NCBI GenBank assembly: GCA_039621445.1
Contig: CP154954.1
Location: 2,480,001-2,544,000 of the forward strand
Length of the DNA stretch: 64,000 nt
Reading direction: 5' to 3'
Source: Euglena gracilis
Taxonomy: Eukaryota
In this document: one piece after another, positions 3,401-35,142 of the stretch
Layout of the letters: each line of letters starts with the position of its first letter
Position numbering within the stretch: the stretch's first letter is position 1
Translations under genes and position numbers: made by a program
The notes under the pieces: generated by a model
Databases searched by the model: none
What the model saw: the letters and a program-made list of their open reading frames with translations, nothing else
What the model was told of the DNA's origin: nothing

Positions 3401-3507
3401 CGTTTGCGCATTCCTCGAGTTGCGCAAATATCCAGAAATTTTTTTTGAGAAAGTGAAAGTGCATCCCCCCGTGGAACCTCCCCAAGAAACGCTGACCAGT
3501 CCTCATA

Positions 3508-5465
3508 CGAGCCGACGTATTTTGTCGCTTCGTGTCAAAAACTACGAGGAAATGGGTTGCCAGCCAAAAAAAATATCACATTGGTTTTTTACTGCTGAAT
3601 TTTATGAATTTTATGACTTTTTTTTTGACTTGCATCATTTTTATGATTTTTTGTTTTTGTTGTTGTTTTTCCGGTCGCCCAGAAATTGTTCTAAAGAAAC
3701 GTTTTTTTTTTGAGGGTCTTTGTCATGACTCATTCTGTTTCACTTGTGGTTTCTCCTCGGGGGGCTGAGGGGCCCCGCCAACACCGTCGCCCCGCTGCCC
3801 GCCCTGAAGGGCCACCTGCGGCCCTCCCTCAGGCTGTACCTCTCCCCCCCCCCGGAGCCCCTCACGTTCACCGTTCTGTGGCAGCACAACCGCAACCCAA
3901 CGAGTCAATGGCCAAATTCCCCCCCAAAACTCCCCAAGGACCCCTCCCCCCCCCCCAGGACCCCCCAAGGCAGGGTCCTGGGGAGAACTGGCCATGTGTG
4001 ACTGCAACACAGCGACGTCGTTGGAAACGGCCCAGGTGGGTCCCAGACCAAGCTGCTTTTTGACTCAGAGTCACCCTGGGCCATGGGAGTGGTGGGTGGG
4101 TCCAGGGCTGACCCTCCCCCGGGAGGTTGGTGGTCCCGCGCCCCGGGGTCTGGGTATGGGTCGAGCCGACGTATTTTGTCGCTTCGTGTCAAAAACTACG
4201 AGGAAATGGGTTGCCAGCCAAAAAAAGTATCACATTGGTTTTTTACTGCTGATTTTTATGAATTTTATGACTTTTTTTTTGACTTGCATCATTTTTATGA
4301 TTTTTTGTTTTTGTTGTTGTTTTTCCGGTCGCCCAGAAATTGTTCTAAAGAAACGTTTTTTTTTTGAGGGTCTTTGTCATGACTCATTCTGTTTCACTTG
4401 TGGTTTCTCCTCGGGGGGCTGAGGGGTCCCGCCAACACCGTCGCCCCGCTGCCCGCCCTGAAGGGCCACCTGCGGCCCTCCCTCAGGCTGTACCTCCCCC
4501 CCCCCCGGAGCCCCTCACGTTCACCGTTCTGTGGCAGCACAACCGCAACCCAACGAGTCAATGGCCAAATTCCCCCCCCAAAACTCCCCAAGGACCCCTC
4601 CCCCCTCCAGGACCCCCAAGACAGGGTCCTGGGGAGAACTGGCCATGTGTGACTGCAACACAGCGACGTCGTTGGAAACGGCCCAGGTGGGTGCCAGACC
4701 AAGCTGCTTTTTGACTCAGAGTCACCCTGGGCCATGGGAGTGGTGGGTGGGTCCAGGGCTGACCCTCCCCCGGGAGGTTGGTGGTCCCGCGCCCCGGGGT
4801 CTGGGTATGGGTCGAGCCGACGTATTTTGTCGCTTCGTGTCAAAAACTACGAGGAAATGGGTTGCCAGCCAAAAAAAGTATCACATTGGTTTTTTACTGC
4901 TGATTTTTATATTTTTTTTATGAATTTCTTTGACTTGCATCATTTTTTCGATTTTTTGTTTTTGTTGTTGATTTTCCGGTCGCCCAGAAAGTGTTCTTCA
5001 GAATTGAGGGTCTTTGTCATGACTCATTCTGTTTCACTTGTGGTTTCTCCTCGGGGGGCTGAGGGGCCCCGCAAACACCGTCGCCCCGCTGCCCGCCCTG
5101 AAGGGCCACCTGCGGCCCTCTCTCAGGCTGTTCCTCTCCCCCCCCCGGAGCCCCTCACGTTCACCGTTCTGTGGCAGCACAACCATCTGCTGCAACACGG
5201 CGACCCGCAGAACCCCGGCCATGGCCTTTTGGGTTGGTGGCGAGGAGCGGTGTTAAGTACGTGGGCCCAGGGCATGGTGAGTGTCCAGAGGGTCAAAGGA
5301 AGTGACTGAATGCATTTGGGACAGCTGAATGGAGGTTTAAAAAAAATCCCCCCGCATACTCAGGATGTGATTTCACAGGTTAATTCATCTCGTTTTCGAA
5401 GTTTTTTTTGTGAAGAAAAAATATTTTTTTGACATAATCGTCATTCTTTGCACCCTTCCTGACAA
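3508..5465 (+). repeat. ~650-bp tandem array (3 units), each with an exon-like GC-rich core
   Basis: Anchor cgagccgacgtattttgtcgcttcgtgtcaaaaac at 3508, 4162 and 4813. Confidence 0.95.
5053..5216 (+). CDS. Probable exon of unknown product (GLRGPANTVAPLPALKGHLRPSLRLFLSP(P)EPLTFTVLWQHNHLLQHGDPQNP), most complete array copy
   Basis: GC3-rich codons. Needs a homopolymer-C correction near 5140. Ends at ggc-CAT-ggcc, a putative nonconventional intron start. Confidence 0.45.
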
Positions 5466-8249: not shown

Positions 8250-8990
8250 CATAGGTTTTTGGGGGTGCTGAGTCCAAAAAAGTGGGTCATTTTGACTCAC
8301 TTTTTGTTTTGAGAAACTCGATTTTTTCCAAATGCGACACATCTTGGCGATTTGCGCCCGAAAATTTGAGGGGAAAACCAGGAAAAACGTCCAGAAAATC
8401 ACATTTAGGTGTGAGCTGAAAATCTGCTGGGGAAAAGTGGAGGCCACTCTCCATTTTCTGGGTCGCAAAACTCAGAAAAAGTGTCAAAAAAACGTGGTTG
8501 CGTGAATTTTGCTGCGCTTTTGGGGGAAAGTGCACAAATATACTTTGTAGAAAGAGTCGCTGTTAAAAAAATAATAAAAAGTGACTTTGCCAACTGAAAA
8601 TTTCTGGGTTGCCCAACAGTTGGCACGTCAAAGTGCACCAAACACAGGTTTCTTAGGGTGCTGAATTTAAAAAAAGTGGGTCATTTCACTTAATTTTTCG
8701 TTTTGAGAAATTGGATTTTCCCCAATTGAGGGACATCTTGGCAATTGTGGCCACGAATTTTGATGGAAAAGTGTGGAAAACCGTTGGAAAATAGCTGGTG
8801 CACCGTTGGTTGAAAACGTTTGGAGGAAATTTGTGGACAACCCCCCGTTTTTTGGGTCGGCGAACTCAGAAAAGCTGTCAGAAAACAGTGGTTGCCGACT
8901 TTTCCTGGAGCATTGTGCAAAAATTGCACAATTTTCTGGGGGAACGTTTTCAAACTTTGTACAAAATCGACCACCAAACCTGGGGTTTTA
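8250..8990 (+). repeat. Diverged ~390-bp tandem duplication
   Basis: ggtgctga...aaaagtgggtcattt...ttttgagaaa...catcttggc recurs near 8265 and 8657. Confidence 0.75.
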
Positions 8991-10318: not shown

Positions 10319-10451
10319 GGTGCCCCGGGGGCATGGGCTGTCCCGAAAGACGCTGTTCCTGATCCAATTCATGGCCCGGCAGTGCGCCGCGGTGAAGTTC
10401 GTCGCCAAGGTGGACGACGACACGTACGTCCACGTCCCGCGCCTCGCCCTT
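10319..10451 (+). CDS. Exon of a GT31 (Galactosyl_T / beta-1,3-glycosyltransferase) family protein
   Basis: Encodes LSRKTLFLIQFMARQCAAVKFVAKVDDDTYVHVPRLAL, the typical GT31 L..KT...F..K.DDD.YV...RL motif. Flanked by CTG-gcggc| and |gcc-CAG-gggc. Confidence 0.85.
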
Positions 10452-10678
10452 GCCCAGGGGCTTGCTCGCCGGAAGGGGGGCGAGATGTCTCCCTCGGGAT
10501 GACACGCCCTGCCCACCGTGCTGCTTTTTTGGCAAGGTTGGAACTTGCGACCCCCGGGTTTGGGGGGGGGGGGGTCGCGTTGCGCAGCATACCCCAAGAT
10601 CCTGAGGCGTCGGGTCCCGAAACGGCCATCTTTAAAGAGAAATCCACCGAGATCGAGGCCCAGCTGGGACCCACAAAC

Positions 10679-11086
10679 GCTGTGCGGCGTGTTGTACTGG
10701 CGGGCGGTGCTGCCCCCGGAGGGGGACCAGGGATTTCTTGGAGTTGGAACCCACGGGAGAGGGCACTCTACCCTGGGGGTCCAGTGGGGGTTTTCCTCCA
10801 TTTTTGGCGCGAAAAGCCAGAAATTTTTTTGAGCCGACCCAAAATTGACCCCCGAAATTGGGTCCCTCGGACCACTCTCCAGGGGGGGGGGGACTCTAGG
10901 TGGGTGGGTGGGTGGGGGGCAGGGGTTTTTTTTAGCCTTGGACCCTCGCCTGTGGGGTCCCAGAGGGGGGTGGGATACACTTTTTGGCACCGAAGGAAAT
11001 TTTTTGAAAAGGGTGCTATTTTTTGGCATTTTTCGCGATTTTTTTGGGTTGTGGGTTGGGTCCCGGGACCCCCCCCCCCAGGCCAG
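10679..11086 (+). repeat. Diverged copy of 22422-22802 (exon end plus most of a CAGGGATTT MITE-intron, right TIR missing)
   Basis: gctgt.cggcgtgttgtactggcgggcggtgctgcccccggagggggaccagggatttc... is shared; internal indels distinguish the copies. Confidence 0.9.
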
Positions 11087-13361
11087 AATTTTATGACTTT
11101 TTTTTTGACTTGCATCATTTTTATGATTTTTTGTTTTTGTTGTTGTTTTTCCGGTCGCCCAGAAATTGTTCTAAAGAAACGTTTTTTTTTTGAGGGTCTT
11201 TGTCATGACTCATTCTGTTTCACTTGTGGTTTCTCCTCGGGGGGCTGAGGGGCCCCGCCAACACCGTCGCCCCTGAAGGGCCACCTGCGGCCCTCCCTCA
11301 GGCTGTACCTCTCCCCCCCCCCCCGGAGCCCCTCACGTTCACCGTTCTGTGGCAGCACAACCGCAACCCAACGAGTCAATGGCCAATTTCCCCCCCAAAA
11401 CTCCCCAAGGACCCCTCCCCCCCCCAGGACCCCCCAAGACAGGGTCCTGGGGAGAACTGGCCATGTGTGACTGCAACACAGCGACGTCGTTGGAAACGGC
11501 CCAGGTGGGTGCCAGACCAAGCTGCTTTTTGACTCAGAGTCACCCTGGGCCATGGGAGTGGTGGGTGGGTCCAGGGCTGACCCTCCCCCGGGAGGTTGGT
11601 GGTCCCGCGCCCCGGCGTCTGGGTATGGGTCGAGCCGACGTATTTTGTCGCTTCGTGTCAAAAACTACGAGGAAATGGGTTGCCAGCCAAAAAAAGTATC
11701 ACATTGGTTTTTTACTGCTGATTTTTATGAATTTTATGACTTTTTTTTTGACTTGCATCATTTTTATGATTTTTTGTTTTTGTTGTTGTTTTTCCGGTCG
11801 CCCAGAAATTGTTCTAAAGAAACGTTTTTTTTTTGAGGGTCTTTGTCATGACTCATTCTGTTTCACTTGTGGTTTCTCCTCGGGGGGCTGAGGGGTCCCG
11901 CCAACACCGTCGCCCCGCTGCCCGCCCTGAAGGGCCACCTGCGGCCCTCCCTCAGGCTGTACCTCTCCCCCCCCCCCCGAGCCCCCTCCGTTCCCCGTTC
12001 TTTGGCCGCACAAACGAAAACCAAACGAGTCAATGGCCAAATTCCCCCCCAAAACTCCCCAAGGACCCCTCCCCCCTCCAGGACCCCCAAGACAGGGTCC
12101 TGGGGAGAACTGGCCATGTGTGACTGCAACACAGCGACGTCGTTGGAAACGGCCCAGGTGGGTGCCAGACCAAGCTGCTTTTTGACTCAGAGTCACCCTG
12201 GGCCATGGGAGTGGTGGGTGGGTCCAGGGCTGACCCTCCCCCGGGAGGTTGGTGGTCCCGCGCCCCGGGGTCTGGGTATGGGTCGAGCCGACGTATTTTG
12301 TCGCTTCGTGTCAAAAACTACGAGGAAATGGGTTGCCAGCCAAAAAAAGTATCACATTGGTTTTTTACTGCTGATTTTTATGAATTTTATGAATTTCTTT
12401 GACTTGCATCATTTTTTCGATTTTTTGTTTTTGTTGTTGATTTTCCGGTCGCCCAGAAAGTGTTCTTCAGAATTGAGGGTCTTTGTCATGACTCATTCTG
12501 TTTCACTTGTGGTTTCTCCTCGGGGGGCTGAGGGGCCCCGCAAACACCGTCGCCCCGCTGCCCGCCCTGAAGGGCCACCTGCGGCCCTCTCTCAGGCTGT
12601 TCCTCTCCCCCCCCCGGAGCCCCTCACGTTCACCGTTCTGGTGGGTGGGTCCAGGGCTGACCCTCCCCCGGGAGGTTGGTGGTCCCGCGCCCCGGGGTCT
12701 GGGTATGGGTCGAGCCGACGTATTTTGTCGCTTCGTGTCAAAAACTACGAGGAAATGGGTTGCCAGCCAAAAAAAGTATCACATTGGTTTTTTACTGCTG
12801 ATTTTTATGAATTTTATGAATTTCTTTGACTTGCATCATTTTTTCGATTTTTTGTTTTTGTTGTTGATTTTCCGGTCGCCCAGAAAGTGTTCTTCAGAAT
12901 TGAGGGTCTTTGTCATGACTCATTCTGTTTCACTTGTGGTTTCTCCTCGGGGGGCTGAGGGGCCCCGCAAACACCGTCGCCCCGCTGCCCGCCCTGAAGG
13001 GCCACCTGCGGCCCTCTCTCAGGCTGTTCCTCTCCCCCCCCCGGAGCCCCTCACGTTCACCGTTCTGTGGCAGCACAACCATCTGCTGCAACGCGGCGAC
13101 CCGCAGAACCCCGGCCATGGCCTTTTGGGTTGGTGGCGAGGAGCGGTGTTAAGTACGTGGGCCCAGGGGATGGTGAGTGTCCAGAGGGTCAAAGGAAGTG
13201 ACTGAATGCATTTGGGACAGCTGAATGGAGGTTTAAAAAAAATCCCCCCGCATACTCAGGATGTGATTTCACAGGTTAATTCATCTCGTTTTCGAAATTT
13301 TTTTTGTGAAGAAAAAATATTTTTTTGACATAATCGTCATTCTTTGCACCCTTCCTGACAA
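11087..13361 (+). repeat. Second cluster of the ~650-bp array (partial unit plus 3 anchors, one shortened unit)
   Basis: Anchors at 11631, 12284 and 12711. Downstream flank matches ~5190-5465 up to cccttcctgacaa. Confidence 0.92.
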
Positions 13362-15452: not shown

Positions 15453-17016
15453 AATGATCGGTGACCCCCCCCCCAGGGTGTGGGGTCGAGCTGACTGGGA
15501 CTCCTGGGCAACCGTCAATCAAATGCCAGGGGGGCATTTGATTGCTCCATTCAGAACCATTATGGCCATTGCCAAGTCTTTTGGATCAATGGGGGCTATT
15601 TTGGTCATTTTTTGGCCACTGCTGGCCACTACCCTTTTTTGGCAAATCAACTGTTATTTTGGTCATTTGAGCCGTTTTCCATTGATAATCATCGTAATTT
15701 TCCGGAAACGGCTGAAATGGCCGAAAAAAAGTTGTTAAACCTGGTCTAAATGGCCCCAAAATGGTTCGAAATGGTCGAAAATGGTCCGAGGTTGATTGTT
15801 GTTTGTTATCGCATGGAATGGCCCCAAAGTGGCCCAAAATGGCTTGAAATGGATTGCCAGTTGGTAACCTAAACATGTCCAAATATGGCCCAGTTCCAGA
15901 AAAATCGCATATTTTCCGCACATTTTTCCGTATTTAGCGTGTATTCCCGCATGACCCCCCAAATGACTTTGCAATGCCCTAAAGCTTTGCGTGCCCGAAG
16001 AACTTCGCTGGGGGGAAGGCCGAAAAAGGTCGGTCCAAATCACATTGCCCGCCCCTTTCAATGAAAAGACACGAAAAATGATGCATCTTTTTTTGGGAAA
16101 TCAGGACGTGGTCAGCGCAAAAAAAAAATGCCATAAAATTTGCCACACTGCTCTGTATTTGATGAACAGAAGCATTAAATTATGTTACAGATAGATACAA
16201 ATGAACAGAATGTGACAACAAATTTCTTTTGGGAAATGTGATCAATCGGTCTATCAATGGTTTTGGGTGCTTCCAAATAACTTTGCAGGGGGTCGGGGCC
16301 AAAAATATCCATCCACTAATTTTTGAAAAGAGTTATTTGGGGGGGGTTATTTTTGCGCATATTTGGGGGGGCTTTTAGTGCACATCCCTCCCCAGAGGGT
16401 TGCTCGCAATTTTTTTCACCTCCATGTGTTTATTTCCAGACTTACAAACCTAGACCATGTTAAGCCAAGGTTGGAACGTTTTCAACAAAAAATGATGGAA
16501 ATTGATGGAGATTGAATTTGCATGTTTCTTTAAGAACACAACAGAAGATGAAGTGTTCCATTTTTTCCAAAAAACAGGTTTTTTTTATTTTGTTTTAAAC
16601 GAGCTGCCAGCTATGCCAGAAACACATACCAAGAAAGGTCAGCAGACATGTTAACAAACAACCCCCCACAGCACAGGGCAGCATCCCTCCTGGCTTTAAT
16701 CCCCTAAAACTTGTACACCGTGTGTCGTGTGTGCATCTCAGGCAGGTTCAACGTCCATGGATTCGAAACATGACCATTTTCAAAGGAAAATTGGCGGGTC
16801 ATCAGGCACTGGGGTCCAAAACTGACCCCCGGGGGGGGGGTGCCTGCTATATGCAGCCACCCCATAGCACCTCGCCTCCCCCAGGGTTGTTCAAAAAAAA
16901 CAGCCTGCACACAGGAAAAAAATAAATCTGGAAACCCAGCTGGTTTTTTCGCACCCCTTCTCCGTTGTCCGTGGTGCCAACCGCTTTGCTTGCCCCATCC
17001 CATCGTCCCCGCAGGA

Positions 17017-20000
17017 ATGCTGGCCTCTCTCGCACTATGGTTTTGCTTCCTCTCCGTGGCGATGAGCAAGTCCAAGACGCGGCCCTCCTCCACCCAGCCT
17101 TGGGGACAGAGCATGTGTGGCGGGATGGAGCAGCATGGCGCTGGAGGCGAGGAGCGGCCGGTTGGAATTGAAAGGGACACCCACGCCTGAGCAGACCTGT
17201 TCGTAGGACTGTGTTGTTGCTGCCGCCCACAAAGCATGGGGGTGTTTTAGACTGCGGTGGAATGGCTGGCAGAGCAGGAAGAATTGGGAGTGCCTTTGCC
17301 AGATGGCTCCAAGCACCTTCGATGACGCAAGGCGATGCGAGGGCGATACCGGAGTTTTGGAGGGCAAAGGTGGGGCTCTGAAGCAGGGCAGGGTTTTTTT
17401 GGCCATTGTCTTACAGCTTCAGCCGTTTTGGCTGCATTTGTCCAATTTTTGGCCACTTTTGGTCACTTTGGCCGTTGGTTGTTTTTGGCCATATTTCGGC
17501 CACTTTAAGCCACTTTTGACTGTTTTTTTTTTGCTGTTGTTTTTTGCCCATTTTTTTTGGTCATCTTTTACCCATTTGACCATTTTTTTGCACAATTGTG
17601 AGCCGCTTTTTGTGCTTTTGGTCATTTTACAGTCAGGACAAAAATGACAGGAAACAAAAATGATGGGTGAGAAATAAGTAATAATAAAATATGGGAAATT
17701 TTCTATTTTGATGATGGGAAAATTCAACTTTCCGCAGAAAATGTTGATAACTTTTCCCTCTTATAATGAAAGTTTTTGAGCAAAAAAGCAAAGTTTCAAA
17801 AAAAGTCAAAATGGTCTTCTGGGTGTCTTTTTTGTGATTTTTTATGAGAAACAGACCCAAAATCGACCATATGTTATATCTCCCCGTCTTTTTGTGTGTT
17901 AAATTTGACCACCTTGAACGTGGCCCCTTTAAAGGGGCATTGAAAGGGTTCGGGGGGCAAAAATGGCGGGGGAAAATATGGAAGAAATGGGTGTTTTCCC
18001 ATCATTTTTGTTCCCCGTCATTTTTGTCCGGACAAGAAACTCATTTTCTGCTTTTGGCCACTTTTGACTGGACACCCACCCACCTTTGGAGGCCATCCAA
18101 GGCTGGATGGGAATACCTGGCCGCACGAAGGGCGGATCGTTTATTTGGATTTGGGACAGGGTGCATGTGTGCAGGCGCTCGGGGTTCAGATTCATGATGT
18201 CTATTTGGGGCAAGGATGCAACAGGGACACGTTTGATCAGGTGCGTGGCAGGTGCACACTCATCTAAGCTTGTGCACGGAAGTTTCGGAGAATTTGACAG
18301 GGGGCCAAACTGGGCCAGAAGCGAAGTTGGGCACTGGCCATGAACAGACAAGTTAGTTCATGGAAGGGAGGGAGAGGGTCCCAAGGTCCCAAAAAGTTCC
18401 AAAAACAGCATTTCTTCCTGAACTGTACCGAGATATGGGGGGGGGAGGGTCCTGGGGTCCCAACTGTGCTGCCAACCCCTTCTTGTTTTCGCCGTTCTGT
18501 GGAGTGCATGAAGCAAACACTTTTTTCAGTGTCCCATGGACAATGGGAAATGAGGGATTGAATTTATTTTGAGACCCTTTTTGCGCACAAATGATTGAAA
18601 TTACACTCCTTTGCACAATTACCCAAATAACTTTTTCGTTTTTGTTTGCGCAGTTATGCAAGTGAATACAGATAATTAAACCTCACTGGAACCTTTCCTG
18701 ACGTATTTTTTATTGCATTTAAAATGGATGCATGATTGGGCGGTCTTCTGTCATGTTCCCTGAAATGTATTTTCAACCCTCTTACTCATCTTTCCGTCAG
18801 CCATTGGACAGGAATCAGATTTCGATGTCTTACAGCCTGACCCAAAAAAATAGAGTCTTCGCACCCCCTTCTTCAAAGACCTCATTCGCATGCCTTGAAA
18901 TGCTGCACAAAAGAGCACTTGTGAACCAGGGCAGTTCTCAAGGGACAGAAACGCCTTTTTTTCTCTTCAGCACCCCCCCCCCTTGCGGACCGCACATTAG
19001 GCCAAAGGGACAGCCAAAGGCCGATCTGGTGATTGAATGGGGGCAAAATGAAAATTCCAAAACCACAGTTTTGACGTTCTGGATGGATGGGCGATGGGGG
19101 TCAAGAGGCCCAAGGCATTCCCCCCCCCCAGATTCGACCCATTTTTGCCAAATATGCCATTTGCGGCCTTCTTTTTCCCCTGGATTTTGCATTTAATGGG
19201 ACCGGGTTTTTTTTTCAAATGTGGTTTTGGGGGGGGGCCTGATGTGAACCCCCCCAAAATCGGTTCTGCAAAGAGTGTGTGTGGGAACTGGACGGCTGGA
19301 GGTATTGCTCCCTTTCCTGTTTCCTGTGGCCAGTGACGGCCTCGTGGGATCGGAACGCCCCGGGTTGGGATGGGAGGTGACGCTCGACCCCCAAGGCTGT
19401 CCCCCAGGTCGGAGGGCACCCCCCTCAGGCTTCTTTTTAAAAAAGTTCGCCCCCCCCGGGGGGGGTGCTGTGGGTTGTGACGGGGATGAGCAACCCCAAA
19501 CACGGGGGGGGTCGGGTTTTGGGATGGGTGTGGGTACCTCCGCCCCTTGAGGAGCGGGGCGCTTGGCCCCGCTCCTCCTTACATACAAACTTGGCCCCCC
19601 CCTTAAGGTTGGTTTTTGGCCTTTAATTTTAGCGCATGGCCGCCAAAATTCTTAACATGCAAACTTGGCCCCCGTAAGGTTGGCCCCCGGCCTCACCTTC
19701 AATCATGGCCCAGGCCAAGCGCCCGGGGGGGAGGTAGCGCTAACCCCCCCCAAATTAAGACACCCCCCCGATTTTCAGCAAAAATCCAAAAAAAACGACC
19801 CCCACAACAGTAAGACCCCCCTCGGGATTCTTTGGGGAAAATCCAAAATAGAACCCCCCCCCAAACTGTGAAATTGTCCCTGAAATGGTGATTTTTTTAC
19901 GTTTTTTTCCATTTTGCCTATCATGTATGTGTCAAAATTGGCATTTTGCAGACGTTTTTTTGCTCATTGCCAAAAATCGCCCCAAAACCCCCTTTAGGAT

Positions 20001-21685
20001 TTTCAACAACAAACCCAAAAAGGACACCTAGGGTCTTATTATTTCAAAAATAAAATATTATTTATTAATATTACTGTTTTATATTAATATTAATATTAAC
20101 ATTAATATTTTATTCCACTCTATATTCATATTAATAATATTTACAAATATATAGCCTCGCCATAGTCTAGACTCCCCTATCCATTATCAATGTACTTACC
20201 TCACTCCTCTTCTCTTCTCATTATCATTCATCCATTACTATCATCCTCTAAATCATCTACTCGCCTCTCCTCTCCCTCCACTCCTTCCTCTCTCTCCCTC
20301 TCCTCTCCTCTCCTCTCCTCTCCTCTCCTCTCCTCTCCTTCCTCCCTTTCTTCCTCTCCTCCTCTTCCCGTCCCCTCCTCTCTTCTGTTCTCTTAATCAG
20401 TCTGAATATGATATAGTATGAATAGTAATCTTACTTAATCTTTAAGACTGAGCCCCGGAGGGGTGCGCCAGCAATGGGGAGGCACCCCGTAGCACAAGCC
20501 ACCCACCTCCTCCCCAGGGTTATTGAGAAGAAGCCTGACCCCCCTGCAGCGGCTTTTCGCTCACAGCAAAGTCACCCGCGAGCGCCATTTCCTGTGGCTG
20601 AATGTGCAGAACTGGAACCAGGCTGTATTGGCGAATCCTGATGTCTGACACCCTGCCATCAACCCCCCCCCCGAGAAACTGTTATCCCCGGAAAATTGTC
20701 CTCTGCCCTCCGTACCCGCTAAGGTGTCCTCATGGGAACCTGTCTCTTCTTCCAGCCATTTCTGAACTCCCACATGCATTAGATTTTTGATAATGCTGAG
20801 CTCTCTGAGTTCTCACATTAATTGCTCCTCTTATGCCCCACCCCACACAGCCCACAAAAAAGGTATTTCTGGTAAGTTTTTTTTAAAGAAAAATTGTGTA
20901 TTTGCAAAAAGATGGTGGATTTGCAAAAAAACAATGGTGGATTTCTTTGCCAAAGAGTGATTTTATTAAAATTATTTTTTTAAAAAAATCCAAAAATCAG
21001 GGAAAATTTTTTTGCATATTCTTCAAAAACAACAGAAATGCTCTGTGATTGAGTTGTTCCTGTCTTTCCTGCTGGAAAAGCTCGGGGTGGAGGGGGGCAT
21101 CATGACACGAGGTAGGAAGCAGGTCTCTGAGGACTCTGAGGACAGGTCAGCGACCACAGGACCAGAAGGCAATTTCCCAGAGGTCCGTCAGAGGAAAAGC
21201 ATTTGGCATCGAGAGACATTTGTGACCCTCCCCCTGCTGAGAAAAAATTCCGAAAACCTTGGTTCTTCAACAACTCACGAAACATGCTTTTTCAAGAAAA
21301 ATATCAAGCAATTAATAGGAGACAAGTTAGCAGGTGCAAAACGTACAACCATCAAGACCATCAAAGGCAAGTCTATCAAGGCCTCAACATACGAATTAAA
21401 TATTGGGTTATAAGATGGCTGGTATCAGTCTTTTGGGAGGGAAGAAGAGGACAAGGATCATGTTTCGTCAGTATGAGAGGCCGGCGCATTTTCAGGGTGA
21501 TAACCTGGGCAACACAGAGGTGGGTGTAGAACAGGGTCAGGTGGTGCCTCCAAAAATTTATTTGCGCTCCCCCAGAGATGTGAGAATTATCGACATCATC
21601 AATGTGCTTTTGTTTACCAAATGGTCATATTCCATTTACCTGGTGTGTGGGTGTGGGTGGTGGGGGGGGGGGTGTGGTGTGTGTG

Positions 21686-21747
<62 letters not shown>

Positions 21748-23340
21748 GTGTGTGTGTGTGTGTTGTGTGTGTGGGTGGGTGGGTGTAGGTGGGTGTGGGT
21801 GTTGTGGGTGTGGGTGTGTTGTGTGTGTTGTGTGATGTGTGTTGTGTGTGTTGTGTGTGGGTGGGTGGTTGGGTGGGTGGGTAGGTGGGTGTGCAGTGTC
21901 ATTATTTCCTTCTAACATTCACCTCTAACCACTTAAAGGGTTTAATTGTTGGAACACACATTTTGAGTCATTTTTGCTCATTTCGGAAGAGGAAAGGGTT
22001 CAAGGCGGCCTGCCACAAGTGTCACAGTCCGGTTCCGGCACGCCGGGTTCATGTCCCGGCCATGCCATTGCTTAACACCTGTCCCCCCCCCCGGGGGGGT
22101 GACTGACTGGTTTTTTGGCCCAGAGCCCCCCCCCCCCCGGGGGGTGGGATGGGCCCGAAAATGAAAAAGTGGCTGGCCTGGCGCCGAAGGCGCTGGAAAT
22201 TTTTTAGATTTTTTTGAGATTTTTTTGGCAAATTTTCATTGCCTCCAGGAGAGTGGCCGATCCACCCCCCCCCCCGGGGGGTAAAGTGACTGACCGGTTT
22301 TTTTCGGAAAAAGTGACTGACTCGTTTTTTTAAAAGGGAAAGTGACCTTCCCCTCCCCCCCCCCGGGTCGCTAAGCAATGGCATGGTCCCGGCTGACCGT
22401 CGCGATGGAGATGACACAAGAGCTGTACGGCGTGTTGTACTGGCGGGCGGTGCTGCCCCCGGAGGGGGACCAGGGATTTCTTGGAGTTGGAACCCACGGG
22501 GGAGGGCACTCTACCCTGGGGGTCCAGTGGGGGGTTTTCCTCCATTTTTGGCGCGAAGAGCCAGAAATTTTTTTTGAGCCGACCCAAAATTGACTTCCGA
22601 AGTTGGGTCCCTCGGACCACTCTCCAGGGGGGGGGGGACTCTAGGTGGGTGGGTGGGTGGGGGGCAGGGGCTTTGTTTAGCCTTGGACACTTTTTGGCGC
22701 CGAAGGCGCTGAAATTTTTTGAAAAGGGTGCTATTTTTTGGCATTTTTCGCGATTTTTTTTGGGTTGTGGGTTGGGTCCCGAGACCCCCCCCCCCAGGCC
22801 AGGGGGTGGGTGGGGGGACCCCCCTCCTCCCAGTCTGAAAAACCCCTAGTGGGGGATTTCCGGTGTTTCAAAAAAAAATCCCTGGCGGGGACTACCCGGT
22901 GTTCGGCCACGACTTTGCCCCGGCTCTGCCCCACGACTGCGGCCAGGTCCCCTGTTTGCTGCCACCTCGGCCCATCCCCCTCCCGCCGCATGCCTTTTGA
23001 CAGCCACGGGCTTGAATCGGCTGGCAGCCTTTTGTCAGTCAAAATGTGGGCGTGTTCCCCTCCGGGGCTCCTGCCTCGCCCCCGTGTTGGCGTACTGTGG
23101 ACGGTCCTGGCTGTCTGTTGGGGGGCCGCATTTGTTTGTGGTATTCGGATCTGTTCTGTGGCCATTTCCGTTTTTAGCTTTTGGTTTGGTTGCTCAATCC
23201 CCCCCGGCTGGTTTTTTTTGGTTTTTTTTCCAAAAAATAATAATTGTGTTTTTTTAATTCTGAAAAAGCAGCAAAGAAACTCCAAAAAGCAAAAGGGAAA
23301 AATAGCCAGGGGCCCGGCAACGTGATTGCCGCCGATGGCC
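17017..23340 (+). CDS. Multi-exon gene model: 17017-17091, 19406-19422, 20543-20615, 22018-22057, 22391-22467, 22890-22940, 23322-~23340. Signal-peptide/anchor-bearing protein, possibly the N-terminal half of the GT90-like gene continuing at 27177 and 29168
   Basis: Spliced product: MLASLALWFCFLSVAMSKSKTRPSS-RSEGTP-LQRLFAHSKVTRERHFLWLNVQNW-SVTVRFRHAGFMSR-LTVAMEMTQELYGVLYWRAVLPPEG-DYPVFGHDFAPALPHDC-VIAADG. ATG is preceded by a pyrimidine tract and cgcAG (17013-17014). Junctions follow the nnn-CAG...CTG-nnnnn rule; the first needs a 1-nt homopolymer allowance. Confidence 0.7.
17634..18031. mobile_element. MITE-like element nested in intron 1
   Basis: ~34-bp imperfect inverted repeat caggacaaaaatgacaggaaacaaaaatgatggg / cccatcatttttgttccccgtcatttttgtccgg. 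Confidence 0.7.
19426..20537. mobile_element. MITE-derived intron with nested insert
   Basis: TIR caggcttctt / aagaagcctg. Perfect 8-bp TSD acccccct (19418-19425 and 20538-20545). Confidence 0.88.
21644..21895. repeat. (GT)n microsatellite / GT-rich low complexity
   Basis: Direct inspection. Confidence 0.95.
22061..22385. mobile_element. hAT-like MITE (family A) forming an intron
   Basis: Perfect 14-bp TIR catgccattgctta / taagcaatggcatg. Perfect 8-bp TSD gtcccggc (22053-22060 and 22386-22393). Confidence 0.93.
22471..22884. mobile_element. hAT-like MITE (CAGGGATTT family) forming an intron
   Basis: TIR cagggatttctt / aaaaaatccctg. TSD agggggac / gcggggac (6 of 8 match). Confidence 0.85.
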
Positions 23341-26300
23341 GTTTTTCCCCCTGCGTTTTCTTTCACATTTGGAGTCAATTTTTTATGGATCAAACCTCTG
23401 GTTGGTGTGTATCCACAGAAAAGATTATGTACCGGTGTGCTCGGGGGCTCGACCATAGCTAGTCCAACTTTTTTTTTTTTGGATTATCTGCAGTCGAGTG
23501 GAATTTCTAGTGGACCCTCTGTGGGGAGGGGGTCCACTAGCAGGGCTGGCTAGTGGTATTTTTTTTTCCTGGTGACTGACGCAAAGCACCAGAATCAGAG
23601 TTTTTTGACCCCCCAAACACCATTTTCAGCCACTTTCGGGATTTTTCGGGACAAAATCAGCCAAAAACAAATTAAAAAACACCATGGCACGCAGTTCCAG
23701 AGTTTGGGGGGGGGGGCTGAACCCTCCCCCCAGGGAGGGGGTCTAGATGGTGGCTTTTTCCCAGTGACTTGCTAATAAGGCCAATAGTCTAGCTGGCCAG
23801 TAACATGACTGGCAAACCCCCCTGTGGGATATAAGTTGGGGTTTTAAATCAAGGAGTTGTTGGTCAAAACACGACCCACCCAAGAACGACCCCAACGCCC
23901 CCAAAATGGCAGTTTTTGGCAAAATCTGTTTAAAGAATAACGGCTTTTCAATGATGGGCAGTCACAGGGATAAGCAAAAAAAATCAGTTTTGGGGATTTG
24001 CGGCCGAAAAAAAAAAGTCCAGATGTCTTTCAATTTTCTTCCAAGTCATAAGTCAGGGTTTGCCAGATCTTAACCCGGAGAGTGTATTTGTGGGAGGCTT
24101 GTGGACCTCAAAGTATATCCCACCCCCCACCCCTGGGGAGCTCGGCCGGACCCACCCTCCCCCCCCCCGGGTCCAAGACAAAAAAAAACCCTGTGCAGGT
24201 CACAGGTAGTTTTTTTCCCACTACCTGGCCCTGCTGGTGGACCACTGGGGGGATTCACCAGTAGGATTTCCACTGGCCAGATTTTGAACTGGCCGTAGTC
24301 GAGCGAGCCCCCCCCCCCCTCAGGGGCACTGTGAACCCTGAAAACAGAAACCTGACGGGGAGGTTGGAGGTTGGCCCCAGATCCCCCCGGGGCCTTCCAA
24401 GTTAAACAGAAACCTGGCCCTGGCTCGTTCTGTTTTGCCCAGGGGGAAAGCGTTGAAGGGCCAGGCAAGGCTTGTTTGGGCTGGGAAGAACAAGGCCGAG
24501 CGTAGATATGTAAAACCCGGCGTTTTTCCGGGGTTCATTTAATCAGTGTGTATTTCCCCCAAGTTTCTTCACGGAACTGTTTTTTTACTCGGACAGTATG
24601 TGCTTGGCTTGTCGGGTCTGTTGGTGTACAGGGGCAACAAAAAAGGGTGATGAAAGGTGGCAGGCTTGACCAATTTTCTCCCTTTGTTGTTGTTGTTGTT
24701 GCACCCCCCCCCCGAGAGCAAAAAATCCATCACCGTCCAGGTGCCCTTTGGCGGCTGGACTGGACAGGAAACCAAATTCGTCAATGGACCGGAAGGGGAA
24801 AAAATAGCTGGAAACAGGCTTCTGCGTAAGAACCCTGGGTTTTTGGGTCCCCCAGGACCCCCCCCCCCCAATTTCGACCCGTCCGAGAGTGCTGACACCG
24901 AGGCCGTCGGTTCCTCGGCGTCGCCCGGCGCTCATGCCACAAAATTTCCACCGGGTTTCTTTTAATTCAGAAGACCCCCCTAAGCGGGGTCCAGGCAAGA
25001 CCCCTGGGTTCGATCTGGACCAACCCCCCACCTGCCCTCCCGGGAGGGGGGGGGCAAATTCTCTTGAGATATGCCCTGTTTTGGGTCACAAATTGCAGAA
25101 GGGCAAGAAATGTCTACTATTTTGATTTATTTTGGTCGAAGATGAGGGCGTTTTTTCTCATTGGTTAGCGGGTCCTGGGGGGGTTCTGGGGGGGTCCCGC
25201 AACTTTTTGGCAAAAATTTTGCAGCACAAGATGAGGTTCTTTTGAAGATTCGGATGGACAAAAAAAAAAGGGGAAGGGGAAAATTGAAAACTCCTTTGTT
25301 GTGGGTTTTGTTTTCCCCCCCCCCCCCCGAGATTCGACCCCCGACCTGCCCTGAGAAACCGGTTCAGGAGGTTCGGGGCGGCTGCGAGGCCCGTCTTTTG
25401 GGTTCCACCCAGACCCCCCCCTTTTCGACTTTGAAGAGGCACCCCCTCGGGGTCGCGCTGCCCCCCTTCTCAGGGCCCCCTTTTAATTCGATCTTCAAAG
25501 ACCCCAAACCTGGGCCCCTGGGGCATCTCCATGTCAATATCTGAGCCTTTGTGCGAAATTAGGGAATTATTTTGATTTGTTTTGGTAGTGGACTTTTTTT
25601 TTTTGGTCATGAGCGGGGTTGGCGGGGTTTGGGTCCCGCAACTTTTTGGCAAAAATTTTGCAACAAGATGAGATGAAGGGGGGGGTCCGGGGGGGGGTAG
25701 CCCCCCCCCCCGGCAGCGGGCGCCGAAGGCGCCCGGAACTCCACGGTCAGTGGGTTATGTGGGTACCGCCCCCCCCCCGGTAGGTCCTGGGGGTCCTGGG
25801 GGGGGGGAACTGGCCATGACTCTTGGTTAGGCAATAAAAGGTGGTTTTGAGTGACTGATTCATCAACCGAGGTCACAAAGAAGGAATCAATGCCTTGTCT
25901 TCTTGAGTTCCAGGCTCAGTTGCCTTCGACACTCATCCCCAGAAAGCACCCGAAATCCAGGCACCTGAAATTATGATTAAATGTTAATATAACCTTCTCG
26001 TGTGCATTTTCCCCAAACCGGCCAATCATGCCATTTTTGGCGCTTGTTAGGGCAAAAAGAGTGAAAAATGCAAAAAAAGTTTTCAGCTAGAACCGCCAGA
26101 AGGAAAAACGCTTGAGTGCTGGTTACCCCCCCCCCCCCCCGGGTCGGTCAGGACCCCCTTGTCCAGCCAATCAGCAACTTTTTTCCAACCAGCAGCTTTT
26201 TTCCCAGCCCCGGCCCCTCCCCCCCCCCCCGCCAACGAGTTTTATTTGTTTCCAGCTGCCCAAAGGGTGGCTGGACAGTAACAGATTTTTCGCTTTGGGG

Positions 26301-27176
26301 GGGGGGGGCAAAAATGGGCCAAACCCGGGCAAAAAATGTGTCGGAAGAGGGCAATGATATTTTGCATAATTGGCAGTTTTTTGGACATTTTTTGCAGTTT
26401 CGAGTTTTTGGTGCCTGGTTCAACCCGGGTCCGGCCCAGTTCCAGCCCGGGACCCGGGGGGGGGGGGTCAGCCAGCAACCTTTTTCCAGGCCAGCCCAAG
26501 TTTTCCAGCCTCTGCGATGGACCCCCTTGATCCAAATGATGACCTAAAATGGCAACGGAGTGTGAGATTGCCAAAAATGTTTTTAAATAAGATAGGAAGT
26601 GTTTGTTGTTGTTGCTTCATTTCAGATTTTGCACTCCTCCTTTGACCATGAGTGCTTGCGGATCGGAGTTCTGTTTCAACCTTTTGGAGGAAATCGATGT
26701 GCATGCAGTTCAACGCTGATTGGTGGAAATTCAAAACCAGATTTTTGATTGGGAAAAAAATGGCCCCCAAAAATATGTTTCCATTGTTTCCATTTCTGTC
26801 AGCCCCTAAAAGGACTAAAATGGCCAACACCGCGTTAAATGACCTAAACCCCCCTCCAAATAGCCTGGCGGGGCCCTTGCTCCTGGCGGGGGCCGAATAA
26901 CCTGGCGGGGGGCAAAAAAAGATGGTTCCGGTAACTTGGCACCCCCCTTTTTAGGCAAATTCCTTCACAGCGCTGAAAAAAAAAAGAGAGCCCAAATAGC
27001 CTGGCATGGGGGAGGGGCAGGGCCAAAAGTTGGTTCCAATAACCTGGCACCCCGCCAGGGCATTGGGGGGGGGGGGGTCACAATGACCTCAAATGGCCCG
27101 AAATGATCCGCCCATACGGGGCCAAAAAGTCATCTTCGGATTTTTAGGTTTTTTTACGGCATTTGGGCCACTTTAG

Positions 27177-27287
27177 GAAGTGCCGATGCCCGTGGCCCAT
27201 CCCGTGCGGCGGCAGCTGGTGGCGCAGTACGCCCGGCACCCGGACTTCGACGTGGCCGACATCTTCGTGGGCAACCACAAGCGGCCT
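27177..27287 (+). CDS. Duplicate of the GT90-like exon at 1143-1253
   Basis: Same translation (ORF 27180 equals ORF 1146). Confidence 0.6.
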
Positions 27288-28505
27288 GGCCAGTGCTGCG
27301 GGGTTCGCCTCCGCGGGGTGGGGGTGGCGCACAACACCGCAGAGCACACCGCGCAGAAGCAAACTCACTTCGGGCCATAACACCGAAATCCGAATTGGAA
27401 GTTCCAGCTGTTTGTTTGGGCTGTTTAGGGGGTCAAGGCTTGAAGTCAAGGAGTTTTTGGCCCAAATCCAACTCCCCCAAAATGACCCTGAAACCAAATG
27501 GGCAATTTTTAGCAAAGTACAGCATTTTTGATGTTGGTCAGTCACATGGAAATGGCCAAAAATAGTTTGGGGGGGGGTTTCAACCAAAAAAAATCGTCCC
27601 CAGCGGCTTTCATTTTTCTTCGCTGGGGGTTTATAAATCAAGCTTTGGTTGGTCATCATGGGGGGGGGGGGTTATGAGTGGGGGGGGGTATGACAGTGGG
27701 GGGATTATAACTGAAGAGGCAGTTCCCCCCCCATTTATAAACCTCCCCCCTTCGGCTGACCAACCAAACCAGATCTCATAAACCCGGGGGGTTTGTGGGT
27801 TGGGGGGTTCCGTCCATCCTTTTGAACGGAACGGGGGACAATAGCTGTGTGATTGAGAACCACCCCAAGGGCCAAGCGTTGAGGTAATGCCGAAGGGGTG
27901 GAGGAACCATGAGCGGCAGTGGAAGCAGCACCAGTGGTATGGGATGGGGTCCAATTCGGCTTAAGCGACACCCTGGTCAGGATTCCAAATTTTCCGGGGA
28001 CCAAAGAAAAAAAGCCTGTTTTGCAATTGAAGATGTTGAGCGGGGCAGCCCAATTCCAACACACCATTGCCAGCTGACTTTTGGCCATTGTTTGCACCTC
28101 CCGGGAAAAGAATTTGTTCGGCGGCTGCTGCAAAATAAGTAAAGCGCGTCAATGGAGGGAGGGGTTGGAAAACGGCTGTTGGCTGGCTGAACGCCCCCCG
28201 GATGTTTCCATGATAAGCCCGACAGAATGACTTTTAAGCCGGAGGGTACCTGCTGACACGGGGGCCGACAGCCAGCATCTTTTTTTGAACCTCGGGCGAA
28301 GGGCGGCTGGACGGTTATGGAACTTTGGCTTTCGGCGGTGCAAAACTGGGCCGAAAATGGGTGTTGATTTTTTTGGCGCCCGGTTCGACTCCACGTTGTG
28401 CCCAGTTCCAGCTGGGGGACCCGGGGGGGGAGGCTAGTCAGCCAGCATCCTTCTTCCAGCCAGCCCAAATTTTTTCCAGCCAGGGATTTTTTTAAGTTTG
28501 GACCC

Positions 28506-28539
<34 letters not shown>

Positions 28540-29167
28540 GGCCGAGCCCCCCCGGGGGGGGGGTCCCCCCGGAGGGGGGTGGGATATACTTTTCGGCGCC
28601 TATGGCGCCGAAAAAATTCTATTCTTAGCACTTTTCGCGATTTTTCGGCCATTTTTTTCGGCCAAATAACCCCCCCAGGGCTAGTGGTGAAAAAAATTTC
28701 GCTGGAGAAAATTTGGACCCCCAAAACCTACCAAAATTGCAGAATTTGCGCCATTTTTAAAGTCATCAAACAAGACACATTCAAAACGTCATTTCTACCT
28801 GATGTGCAGCGCCAGAGGAATTTTTTTCCAGTCTGGGGGGGGGGGGCGGGTATGATGAAGAATTTACTCCAAAGAAGATAAAAATCTCCTCCGGCTGAAA
28901 AGTGTGCATATCAGGGGAGCTCTCGAGGGAACTTGCGTATGCAACTTGTGTTTGTATGTGTGTGTGTGTGTTTCGGGGGGTTTTTGCTTGTTTTGTTTGT
29001 TTTTTTTGCATCGCGTTTCTTTGAAGGTCCATGTTGTGCCCCCCCCCCCGGTTGTGTGTCAGGGTTTCGCCGTCAACCTCACGAAGGAGTGAGTGTGCCG
29101 TGTGCGTGGGAAATCGGCGCGGGTCCCACCCCCCCCTTCTTCACACGGGTCCGGGACAGCCCCGGCC

Positions 29168-29440
29168 GGCGGCCATCCGATGTACGCCAGCATATGGAGG
29201 ACCACGCCCGCTACCGCTTCCTGCTGGACGCCCCGGCGAGAGGGGCCGGGCCCGTGGCTGGTCGGGCCGGCCTTTCCCCCGGTGTCTCGCCGCCTCTCCC
29301 GCGGCTGCTCCCGGTGCGTCTTTCCGGAAGAGGACTGGATGCCATGTGGCGGCCCTGGGGACATTTGGAGGCGGTTGAGATTGGGCGGGGCGAGACCTTC
29401 GGCAATGGAGCTTGCGCTCGGGCTGTACTCCTGTGCACCG
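29168..29440 (+). pseudogene. Duplicate of the frame-disrupted GT90-like exon at 3130-3400
   Basis: Same sequence including the agcatatgga lesion. Confidence 0.5.
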
Positions 29441-29545
29441 TTTGCGCATTCCTCGAGTTGCGCAAATATCCAGAAATTTTTTTTGAGAAAGTGAAAGTGC
29501 ATCCCCCCGTGGAACCTCCCCAAGAAACGCTGACCAGTCCTCATA

Positions 29546-32126
29546 CGAGCCGACGTATTTTGTCGCTTCGTGTCAAAAACTACGAGGAAATGGGTTGCCA
29601 GCCAAAAAAATATCACATTGGTTTTTTACTGCTGAATTTTATGAATTTTATGACTTTTTTTTTGACTTGCATCATTTTTATGATTTTTTGTTTTTGTTGT
29701 TGTTTTTCCGGTCGCCCAGAAATTGTTCTAAAGAAACGTTTTTTTTTTTGAGGGTCTTTGTCATGACTCATTCTGTTTCACTTGTGGTTTCTCCTCGGGG
29801 GGCTGAGGGGCCCCGCCAACACCGTCGCCCCGCTGCCCGCCCTGAAGGGCCACCTGCGGCCCTCCCTCAGGCTGTACCTCTCCCCCCCCCCCGGAGCCCC
29901 TCACGTTCACCGTTCTGTGGCAGCACAACCGCAACCCAACGAGTCAATGGCCAAATTCCCCCCCAAAACTCCCCAAGGACCCCTCCCCCCCCCCCAGGAC
30001 CCCCCAAGGCAGGGTCCTGGGGAGAACTGGCCATGTGTGACTGCAACACAGCGACGTCGTTGGAAACGGCCCAGGTGGGTCCCAGACCAAGCTGCTTTTT
30101 GACTCAGAGTCACCCTGGGCCATGGGAGTGGTGGGTGGGTCCAGGGCTGACCCTCCCCCGGGAGGTTGGTGGTCCCGCGCCCCGGGGTCTGGGTATGGGT
30201 CGAGCCGACGTATTTTGTCGCTTCGTGTCAAAAACTACGAGGAAATGGGTTGCCAGCCAAAAAAGTATCACATTGGTTTTTTACTGCTGATTTTTATGAA
30301 TTTTATGACTTTTTTTTTGACTTGCATCATTTTTATGATTTTTTGTTTTTGTTGTTGTTTTTCCGGTCGCCCAGAAATTGTTCTAAAGAAACGTTTTTTT
30401 TTTGAGGGTCTTTGTCATGACTCATTCTGTTTCACTTGTGGTTTCTCCTCGGGTGGCTGAGGGGTCCCGCCAACCCCGTCGCCCCGCTGCCCGCCCTGAA
30501 GGGCCACCTGCGGCCCTCCCTCAGGCTGTACCTCTCCCCCCCCCCCCGGAGCCCCTCACGTTCACCGTTCTGTGGCAGCACAACCGCAACCCAACGAGTC
30601 AATGGCCAAATTCCCCCCCCCTCCCCAAGGACCCCCCCCCCCCCAGGACCCCCCATCCAGAACATGTGTAGCGTTGTGTTCAACCAGATGTTTTTTCAGG
30701 TTTTTTTGTGGTCCAGCTGATTTTTTTTGGAGGGTTGGGCCATGGGTGGGTGAGCCTGTGCCCTACGAGGAAAAAGACAAGAAAGTTGTCCAGCCAGTTA
30801 GGTGGGATCATGGTTTTTGACGCCGCACATCGTTCTGGGAATCCCCGCCCTTTCTGAAACGTTTTTTTTTGTACTCCCGTCCCTGGGGGGCTGGGTTGGC
30901 CTGCAAAAATCCCAAGTCCCTCACCCCCTGAATTTGTGGGAGTCCCAGTTTTTGGCAACCTCGGTGTGTTCGGGGTCTCGTTTCCCCCCACCCCGTTGTG
31001 GGGGGACCTCGTGACGCAGACCCAACTCGTCATGCCCTGTTGTTATTCCCGTGGGGTCATGGGTTTTTGAACGTCTGGGTTGGGCTGTCCTTTTTTTTTT
31101 CCTCGAGGAATTTTTTGACGTTTTGGTAGACAAAAAAAAGTACACATTTTGCTGAACTTTATGAAAATTCATTTTTCGATTTTTTGTTTTTGTTGTCCCC
31201 CCCTGGAAACTTCAGTTCTCATTTGGACTGAGGCCCCCCAAAACTCCCCAAGGACCCCTCCCCCCTCCAGGACCCCCAAGACAGGGTCCTGGGGAGAACT
31301 GGCCATGTGTGACTGCAACACAGCGACGTCGTTGGAAACGGCCCAGGTGGGTGCCAGACCAAGCTGCTTTTTGACTCAGAGTCACCCTGGGCCATGGGAG
31401 TGGTGGGTGGGTCCAGGGCTGACCCTCCCCCGGGAGGTTGGTGGTCCCGCGCCCCGGGGTCTGGGTATGGGTCGAGCCGACGTATTTTGTCGCTTCGTGT
31501 CAAAAACTACGAGGAAATGGGTTGCCAGCCAAAAAAAGTATCACATTGGTTTTTTACTGCTGATTTTTATATTTTTTTTATGAATTTCTTTGACTTGCAT
31601 CATTTTTTCGATTTTTTGTTTTTGTTGTTGATTTTCCGGTCGCCCAGAAAGTGTTCTTCAGAATTGAGGGTCTTTGTCATGACTCATTCTGTTTCACTTG
31701 TGGTTTCTCCTCGGGGGGCTGAGGGGCCCCGCAAACACCGTCGCCCCGCTGCCCGCCCTGAAGGGCCACCTGCGGCCCTCTCTCAGGCTGTTCCTCTCCC
31801 CCCCCCCGGAGCCCCTCACGTTCACCGTTCTGTGGCAGCACAACCATCTGCTGCAACACGGCGACCCGCAGAACCCCGGCCATGGCCTTTTGGGTTGGTG
31901 GCGAGGAGCGGTGTTAAGTACGTGGGCCCAGGGCATGGTGAGTGTCCAGAGGGTCAAAGGAAGTGACTGAATGCATTTGGGACAGCTGAATGGAGGTTTA
32001 AAAAAAATCCCCCCGCATACTCAGGATGTGATTTCACAGGTTAATTCATCTCGTTTTCGAAGTTTTTTTTGTGAAGAAAAAATATTTTTTTGACATAATC
32101 GTCATTCTTTGCACCCTTCCTGACAA
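29546..32126 (+). repeat. Third cluster of the ~650-bp array
   Basis: Anchors at 29546, 30201 and 31473, plus one noisy unit between the last two. Confidence 0.9.
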
Positions 32127-35100: not shown

Positions 35101-35142
35101 GAAAAGTGGAGGCCACTCTCCATTTTCTGGGTCGCAAAACTC

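Follow-up and report, generated by a model that had tools for sequence, protein, structure and literature searches.

Organization of the locus

We analysed a 64,000-nucleotide stretch of the Euglena gracilis genome (assembly GCA_039621445.1, contig CP154954.1, forward-strand positions 2,480,001 to 2,544,000; hereafter the window, numbered from its first letter), following up a preliminary description of a series of introns within it. Positions 17014–23077 are the 5′ part of a copy of a GT90-family glycosyltransferase gene on the + strand, whose exons and introns, the latter lettered A to F, are listed in Table 1. Two of the putative introns, A and C, have complementary ends that match the splicing signal of euglenid nonconventional introns; a third, intron B, lies between them and is an addition to the preliminary description.

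The identity of the gene comes from a 203-amino-acid Euglena gracilis protein of EukProt, EG_transcript_27184 (P0002), which is a Glyco_transf_90 protein covering profile positions 90–268 of 396. In a search among 1.84 billion representatives it was the one specific protein match of the open reading frame (ORF) containing exon 22391–22467. Exons in the window are identical to P0002 residues 2–54, 107–134, and 141–157; the exact-match placements are 22387–22470 for residues 2–29, 22887–22940 for residues 28–45, 23078–23104 for residues 46–54, 27198–27281 for residues 107–134, and 29194–29244 for residues 141–157. The match therefore backs the removal of introns D, E, and F. The first methionine of P0002, at 22051 in exon 4, is downstream of intron C, so the protein is silent on introns A, B, and C. 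Since P0002 begins at profile position 90, the coding sequence for some 60–90 N-terminal residues must lie upstream of this methionine. Pfam searches of the single-exon ORFs and of the ORFs inside introns A and C returned nothing relevant. A coding reading of 22890–23000 was considered and is wrong beyond 22940, as P0002 places the start of intron F at 22941.

Table 1. Exons, introns, and stem arms of the GT90 gene copy, with the identity of 8-bp duplications (or flanks) and the longest perfect run of the terminal stem
Feature	Coordinates	Strand	Duplication identity	Perfect run	Remarks
Putative first coding exon	17014–17091	+			ATG 17017; pyrimidine-rich tract and AG upstream; third-position GC 0.84
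Intron A, putative nonconventional, 2,314 nt	17092–19405	+	3/8	11	N3 + CAG...CTG + N6, next base A
5′ arm of A stem	17095–17105	+			11/11 complementary to 19389–19399
Inverted-repeat-bounded segment inside A	17632–18033		3/8 (flanks)		36-nt arms, 92% complementary
Second, proximal partner of A 5′ end	18097–18110	+			13/14 complementary to 17090–17103
3′ arm of A stem	19389–19399	+			11/11 complementary to 17095–17105
Putative 17-nt micro-exon	19406–19422	+			Placed from the frame chain only
Intron B, young hAT-like element (19426–20537) plus one duplication copy	19423–20542	+	8/8	10	Perfect 8-bp duplication
Putative exon 3, 73 nt	20543–20615	+			Third-position GC 0.80 in the frame of the chain
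Intron C, putative nonconventional, 1,402 nt	20616–22017	+	2/8	5	N3 + CAG...CTG + N5, next base A
5′ arm of C stem	20619–20630	+			Pairs with 22001–22012
3′ arm of C stem	22001–22012	+			Pairs with 20619–20630
Exon 4	22018–22057	+			Contains P0002 start ATG 22051
Intron D, young 325-bp element (22061–22385) plus one 8-bp duplication	22058–22390	+	8/8	14	Missing from P0002
Exon 5	22391–22467	+			Identical to P0002 (residues 2–29 at 22387–22470)
Intron E	22468–22889	+	6/8	9	Inverted repeat 9 perfect, 11/12; missing from P0002
Exon 6	22890–22940	+			P0002 residues 28–45 at 22887–22940
Intron F, 137 nt, CAG...CTG type	22941–23077	+	3/8 (flanks)	4 (bulged)	Between P0002 residues 45 and 46
14620 element			5/8	13	

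Complementary ends of introns A and C

The code of the nonconventional introns, 5′-N3CDG...CH′GN5-6|R, was defined by knock-in mutagenesis, in which CAG/CTG itself proved to be required; pairing behind CAG/CTG was shown to be essential with a poly-A for poly-T swap, and CGG-CTG introns, with a central G·U, do splice (Nomura 2025, PMC12501133). These published knock-ins mean that the mutate-and-compensate test suggested in the preliminary description has in essence already been done.

Introns A and C both conform to this code. In A, CAGCCTTGGGG (17095–17105) is perfectly complementary to CCCCAAGGCTG (19389–19399) at 11 of 11 positions, just as first described. CAG occupies 17095–17097 and CTG 19397–19399, the latter followed by six bases and then a purine, A, at 19406, and eight Watson-Crick pairs lie beyond the motif. 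The borders are non-canonical, the intron starting with AC and ending with CC. This stem is the sole strong one among 10 code- and frame-compatible junction candidates, with a position-specific chance of about 4 × 10−4 to 1.4 × 10−3, which puts it far outside what chance would give. The inverted repeat to which it belongs extends to 16 of 20 positions and looks like a longer repeat that has been worn on the inside (outer 11 against inner 9 positions, Fisher p = 0.026). Nested inserts had also been ascribed to A: one inverted-repeat-bounded segment lacking a duplication was located (Table 1), and no further inserts were found within the intron.

In intron C the two arms form nine Watson-Crick pairs, two U·G pairs, and one A·G opposition, with a longest run of five, which bears out the original count of 11 of 12 pairs including two G-U. 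CAG is at 20619–20621 and CTG at 22010–22012, followed by five bases and by A at 22018; beyond the motif, six Watson-Crick and two G·U pairs are found at nine positions. The borders are again non-canonical (AA at the start, CA at the end). Of three code- and frame-compatible candidates the C stem is the best (11 pairs against seven and four), and its position-specific chance of about 1.5% takes it only modestly beyond chance. When the whole 1.4-kb intron is folded, the stem is part of the minimum-energy structure, and its first eight pairs, both G·U included, have probabilities of 0.91–0.98. A GT-rich microsatellite lies within C at about 21640–21900.

Neither intron retains a recognizable target-site duplication, the identity of the 8-bp flanks being at chance level in each (Table 1), and no other copy of A or of C was found in the window. 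The borders originally proposed (17092, about 19405, 20616, and 22017) prove to be those given by a three-base spacer ahead of CAG and one of five or six bases behind CTG. As these code-defined borders are non-canonical, A and C lack the element-made GT-AG sites that characterize spliceosomal introners.

Reading frame and coding signal

Removal of introns A to E according to the code yields a single reading frame from the ATG at 17017, with GC contents of 0.62, 0.49, and 0.84 at codon positions 1, 2, and 3. Third-position GC is the highest in each of the six exons, and reaches 0.80–1.0 in the predicted frame of the upstream exons; the transcript-confirmed exon at 10332–10451, used as a control, has values of 0.675, 0.35, and 0.90. 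The spliced chain contains no in-frame stop upstream of Met 22051, and in the unspliced DNA the nearest in-frame stop lies inside C, just before 21967. The sequence before 17014 is a good conventional acceptor (79% pyrimidine over 28 nt), whereas that before 22018 is a poor one (33% pyrimidine over 30 nt), and this speaks against an acceptor of either the spliced-leader or the conventional kind at the latter position. Code, frame, and codon-position GC are thus the grounds on which A, B, and C are put forward as introns, and A and C probably are.

Chance level of CAG...CTG stems

The background was estimated from all CAG..CTG pairs 100–3500 nt apart in the whole window and in 20 block-wise dinucleotide shuffles. 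The window contains 69,873 such pairs, 10 of them with a perfect run of at least 11, compared with 2.0 ± 0.9 among 54,041 in the shuffles, a 5-fold enrichment; four of the 10 real runs rest on homopolymer runs. With G-U allowed, 407 real pairs (0.58%) reach 11 of 12 positions, against 245 ± 22 (0.45%) in the shuffles, so stems like that of C are common throughout the window. The A and C stems are meaningful because of their place at code- and frame-compatible junctions.

Introns B, D, E, and F and related elements

The element in intron B (1,112 bp) is flanked by a perfect 8-bp duplication (19418–19425 and 20538–20545), and its inverted repeat starts CAGGCTTCTT, with 10 perfect positions and 12 of 14 overall. 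In the fold, its terminal helix has a probability of about 1.0. Intron D combines a perfect 8-bp duplication with a 14-nt perfect inverted repeat. It belongs to a family of MITEs (miniature inverted-repeat transposable elements) of 325–356 bp with perfect 8-bp duplications, of which there are copies at 22061–22385, 46587–46942, and 60612–60963. In the GT90 exon, the termini of the family copy read CAT...ATG rather than CAG...CTG, off the published core motif, yet this copy is missing from P0002: either D is spliced anyway, or P0002 comes from a gene copy without D. In intron F, whose removal P0002 supports, the two spacers add up to 7 (3+4 or 2+5) instead of 8–9, and the stem is bulged. D and F thus depart from the strict published nonconventional motif.

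Two further observations concern E and B. Positions 10672–11086 hold a copy, 87–96% identical, of exon 5's 3′ 53 nt together with the first 360 nt of E (10725–11086), which a tandem array cuts off at 11086; as this partial copy includes the 5′ part of E, E predates that duplication. A MITE of 375 bp occupies 55011–55385; its inverted repeat is perfect over 18 nt, its duplication matches at 7/8, and its ends start CAGGCTT..., as do those of B and of the element at 14620.

Introns B, D, and E and the window copies at 46587, 55011, and 60612 resemble hAT-like MITEs in their 8-bp duplications (6–8 of 8 positions), in their inverted repeats of 10–18 nt, and in that these repeats start CA(G/T). The hAT-like label is a provisional one, drawn from the duplication length and from terminal motifs typical of such elements. 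By the same comparison, B and D have the full 8-bp duplication and E nearly so, whereas A and C have neither a duplication nor a sister copy in the window. An inverted repeat of about 10 nt or more is present in A (11 perfect) and weaker in C (9/12 Watson-Crick).

Taken as a whole, the locus is probably a GT90 gene copy with nonconventional introns A, B, and C, in which the terminal stems serve as the splicing signal. Three such introns would follow each other in a row, separated by exons of 17 and 73 nt. The second, non-GT-AG splicing system of Euglena would read CAG three bases into each intron, pair it with CTG five or six bases before the intron end, and need further pairing behind the motif; it is this signal that the A and C stems would represent. 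We propose that they have been kept because a copy that loses its stem cannot be spliced, while the spacer bases outside the stem would have no sequence requirement and would drift freely. B and D would be fresh insertions of hAT-like MITEs, with the inverted repeats at their ends providing a stem of the same sort and the 3+5 spacer bases being equal to their 8-bp duplication. Splicing of A, B, and C in this gene copy, and an origin of A and C as such MITEs, are inferences short of proof.

Duplication identity and stem strength

The preliminary description arranged these introns in a series in which the target-site duplication decays while terminal pairing persists, with G-U pairs, and took this for a likely domestication gradient with selection on an RNA stem. 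The duplication values it used for comparison (8/8 at 22061, 6/8 at 22471, and 5/8 at 14620) were recovered. Over the seven elements of Table 1, however, stems weaken as duplications fade, a tendency that is not significant, though they stay usable: duplication identity and stem strength have a Spearman coefficient of 0.56 (p = 0.19), or 0.71 (p = 0.08) with G-U counted, with n = 7. The weakest stems, those of C and F, are in introns without a duplication. No coding signal surrounds the element at 14620, which is therefore perhaps not a coding-exon intron.

Within single introns, stem and flanks differ more clearly: in A the stem matches at 11/11 positions against 3/8 in the flanks (Fisher p = 0.005), and in C at 9/12 against 2/8 (p = 0.04). 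If A once had a perfect duplication, equal decay of its stem and flanks is unlikely. Since A and C keep no trace of a duplication and neither has a second copy in the window, their descent from MITEs is assumed rather than observed, and the data do not establish a domestication gradient. An ageing gradient is a plausible and reasonable, if unproven, reading of the seven elements. It is a tentative proposition, which we hold somewhat short of probable, that the nonconventional introns of Euglena are born as hAT-like MITEs, that the splice geometry with its 3+5 spacer bases takes out the element together with exactly one copy of the 8-bp duplication, that the duplication-derived spacers then drift neutrally while selection for splicing maintains the stem, and that in this gene A and C represent old survivors of the process.

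The G-U argument lacks power in this sample. At sense-strand positions 1–14 of introns A to F there are six G·U pairs, three A·C pairs, and 10 other mismatches (one-sided p = 0.25). Two of the six G·U pairs are in the young element B, and these must have been inherited, not selected in place. Selection on an RNA stem agrees with what is published on Euglena nonconventional introns.

Other features of the window

The window contains a segmental duplication (1–8473 and 26029–35142, about 99% identity), both copies of which carry GT90 exons encoding residues 107–134 (1164–1247 and 27198–27281) and residues 141–157 (3156–3206 and 29194–29244). Arrays of a tandem repeat of about 650 bp are found at 3508–5184, 11086–13361, and 29546–31845, with units 86–99% alike. 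A GC-rich (72–75%, with strong G skew) retrotransposon without long terminal repeats, a long interspersed nuclear element (LINE), occupies about 35000–44700 on the + strand; its ORFs match Exo_endo_phos (37198–38124), RVT_1 (40193–41506), and zf-RVT (42379–44655), and it has internal tandem repeats at 39318–40334. A lone exon at 10332–10451 is 95% identical to residues 120–159 of a Euglena GT31 galactosyltransferase protein, P0001 (EG_transcript_20058), the rest of which is not in the window. Three bases and then CAG come after this exon, in keeping with the nonconventional code.

Alternative explanations

Several observations weigh against the assignment of A, B, and C as stem-defined introns of this gene, some concerning the stems and splice sites and others, taken up further below, concerning P0002. 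Conventional splice sites that also keep the frame are numerous: there are 33 such GT/GC-AG pairs for A, for example 17115–19407 with a 65% pyrimidine tract, and 30 for C. An open frame is weak evidence, as 108 of 243 phase combinations are stop-free. In a full-length fold of A the pairing of 17095–17105 with 19389–19399 has a probability of 0.15–0.30, and the minimum-energy fold uses a shifted register (17102–17109 with 19397–19404). There is also a proximal partner for the 5′ end about 1 kb downstream, at 18097–18110, which matches 17090–17103, and hence two bases of the exon, at 13 of 14 positions; a hand estimate makes this match too good for chance. The proximal partner has a duplex energy of −27.0 kcal/mol versus −32.4 kcal/mol for the distal partner, and a probability of 0 in the full fold. 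All of the alternative pairings of A either join its ends or compete for the same arm. Finally, at 53550–53790 and 52223–52924 there are CAG...CTG stems, perfect over 12 and 11 bp, that lack a duplication (3/8 and 2/8) and have flanks with no coding-like third-position GC. They could represent chance pairing or old elements lying beyond exons; such perfect stems in non-coding-looking DNA weaken any inference of selection drawn from this window alone.

A two-step model of A, in which the proximal partner is used first and a second intron (18114–19338) is removed afterwards, was rejected as contrived. It needs a 2-nt exon, and by a hand count the sequence past 18111 that would have to be exonic is without the third-position GC typical of coding DNA.

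The alternative that survives best, doubtful as we consider it, holds A and C to be genuine nonconventional introns that never had an 8-bp duplication, having arisen from conventional or intermediate introns, from another type of element, or by intron transposition, so that there would be no ageing series but two classes of intron side by side. The chance-level identity of their flanks and the lack of a second copy of either in the window speak for this; the 3′ end of A also looks conventional, with a pyrimidine tract and CAG at 19407, and intermediate introns have been described in euglenids (PMC3935182). On the other side, the repeat of A, with its contrast between outer and inner positions, resembles a longer one that has decayed; the termini of A and C start with CAG like those of B and E, young elements with 8-bp duplications; duplications of 6/8 and 5/8 exist; and a MITE origin is a published hypothesis.

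It is unlikely, slightly more so than the foregoing, that A, C, or both are not introns of an expressed gene at all. The locus would then be a rearranged partial paralog, or its mRNA would start at exon 4 by spliced-leader addition, and the complementary ends, in DNA that is an outron or is not transcribed, would be relic inverted repeats of a transposon in A and the product of chance in C. P0002 starts at 22051; it is the only member of its 90% cluster, and a protein search with P0002 as query gave no relatives longer than itself. ORF 22839–22997 likewise had no match among longer proteins, and part of this ORF is intron F. Residues 56–106 and 158–203 of P0002 are encoded nowhere in the 64-kb window. 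The locus may thus be a partial paralog or pseudogene, and the missing residues together with the many segmental duplications suggest that P0002 may derive from another, fuller copy of the gene, which may simply be without the D or E insertions. The spliced chain above Met 22051 is stop-free, so a fully spliced transcript should yield a protein longer than P0002. The flanking segmental duplications and the LINE fit a rearranged locus, and the background figures (stems like that of C at 0.45–0.58% of anchored pairs, about two perfect 11-mers expected per window) allow for chance pairing. Set against this are the third-position GC of 0.80–1.0 in the predicted frame of the upstream exons, the full agreement of A and C with the code, including the purine, and the position-specific chance levels of about 10−3 for A and 1.5% for C. 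The acceptor before 22018 is poor and that before 17014 good, and the GT90 profile needs residues upstream of exon 4.

That the ends are conserved at the DNA level, for recognition of still-mobile elements by a transposase, is highly improbable: the young copies in the window indicate recent activity and the termini may resemble hAT-type ends, but A and C have neither duplication nor sister copies in the window, the two U·G pairs of C would count as mismatches both in DNA and in the opposite strand, and the published knock-ins show a requirement in RNA splicing.

Relationship to known introns and introners

With non-GT-AG borders, CAG at positions +4 to +6, CTG 5–6 nt before the 3′ end, a purine as the next base, and pairing behind the motif, A and C are, at the sequence level, of one kind with euglenid nonconventional introns. 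Nonconventional introns range in length from tens to thousands of nucleotides, and junction repeats are present at many of them and absent at others. Introns of this class are excised as circular RNA, after the conventional introns (PMC12501133, PMC11282704). The counts reported for E. agilis are 157,875 CAG-CTG and 10,512 CGG-CTG introns, the A·C counterpart not being listed separately (PMC12501133, Dataset S7), and for E. gracilis 19,403 CAG-CTG introns among 72,771 without junction repeats (PMC12501133). A MITE origin was proposed together with the finding of direct repeats at most junctions (Milanowski 2014, PMC3935182); inverted-repeat-based stems with 'TSD-like' repeats (target-site-duplication-like) are treated in a 2024 review (PMC11282704), and MITE-like elements are named as the likely source in a recent Discussion (Nomura 2025, PMC12501133). 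The 8-bp figure, the decay series, and the G-U strand test were not found in those parts of PMC12501133, PMC3935182, and PMC11282704 on which this account draws.

There is a further likeness to the introners of Micromonas, dinoflagellates, and Amoebophrya, which are DNA transposons in exons that are removed as introns and have a duplication at the junctions (PMC11282704). In Amoebophrya, inverted repeats are thought to bring the intron ends together (Farhat 2021, PMC7789003). Most introners bring along or recruit GT-AG sites on which the ordinary spliceosome acts, whereas Euglena uses a separate stem-reading system. A reading of the elements studied here as dinoflagellate or Amoebophrya introners was dropped in view of the EukProt matches of window exons to Euglena proteins.

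Implications

The general picture of Euglena splicing is unchanged by these results: the stem requirement, G-U tolerance, and the hypothesis of MITE descent have all been published, and CAG-CTG introns without junction repeats have been counted in tens of thousands in E. gracilis and E. agilis. A and C are plausibly further examples of this established nonconventional-intron biology. If RNA data confirm the assignments, a single gene would combine nonconventional introns that are fresh, middle-aged, and old, neatly illustrating the long-standing hypothesis of a MITE origin, and the decay of the duplication would suggest a way to date intron gain, such that, if the ageing series is true, duplication identity could date each intron.

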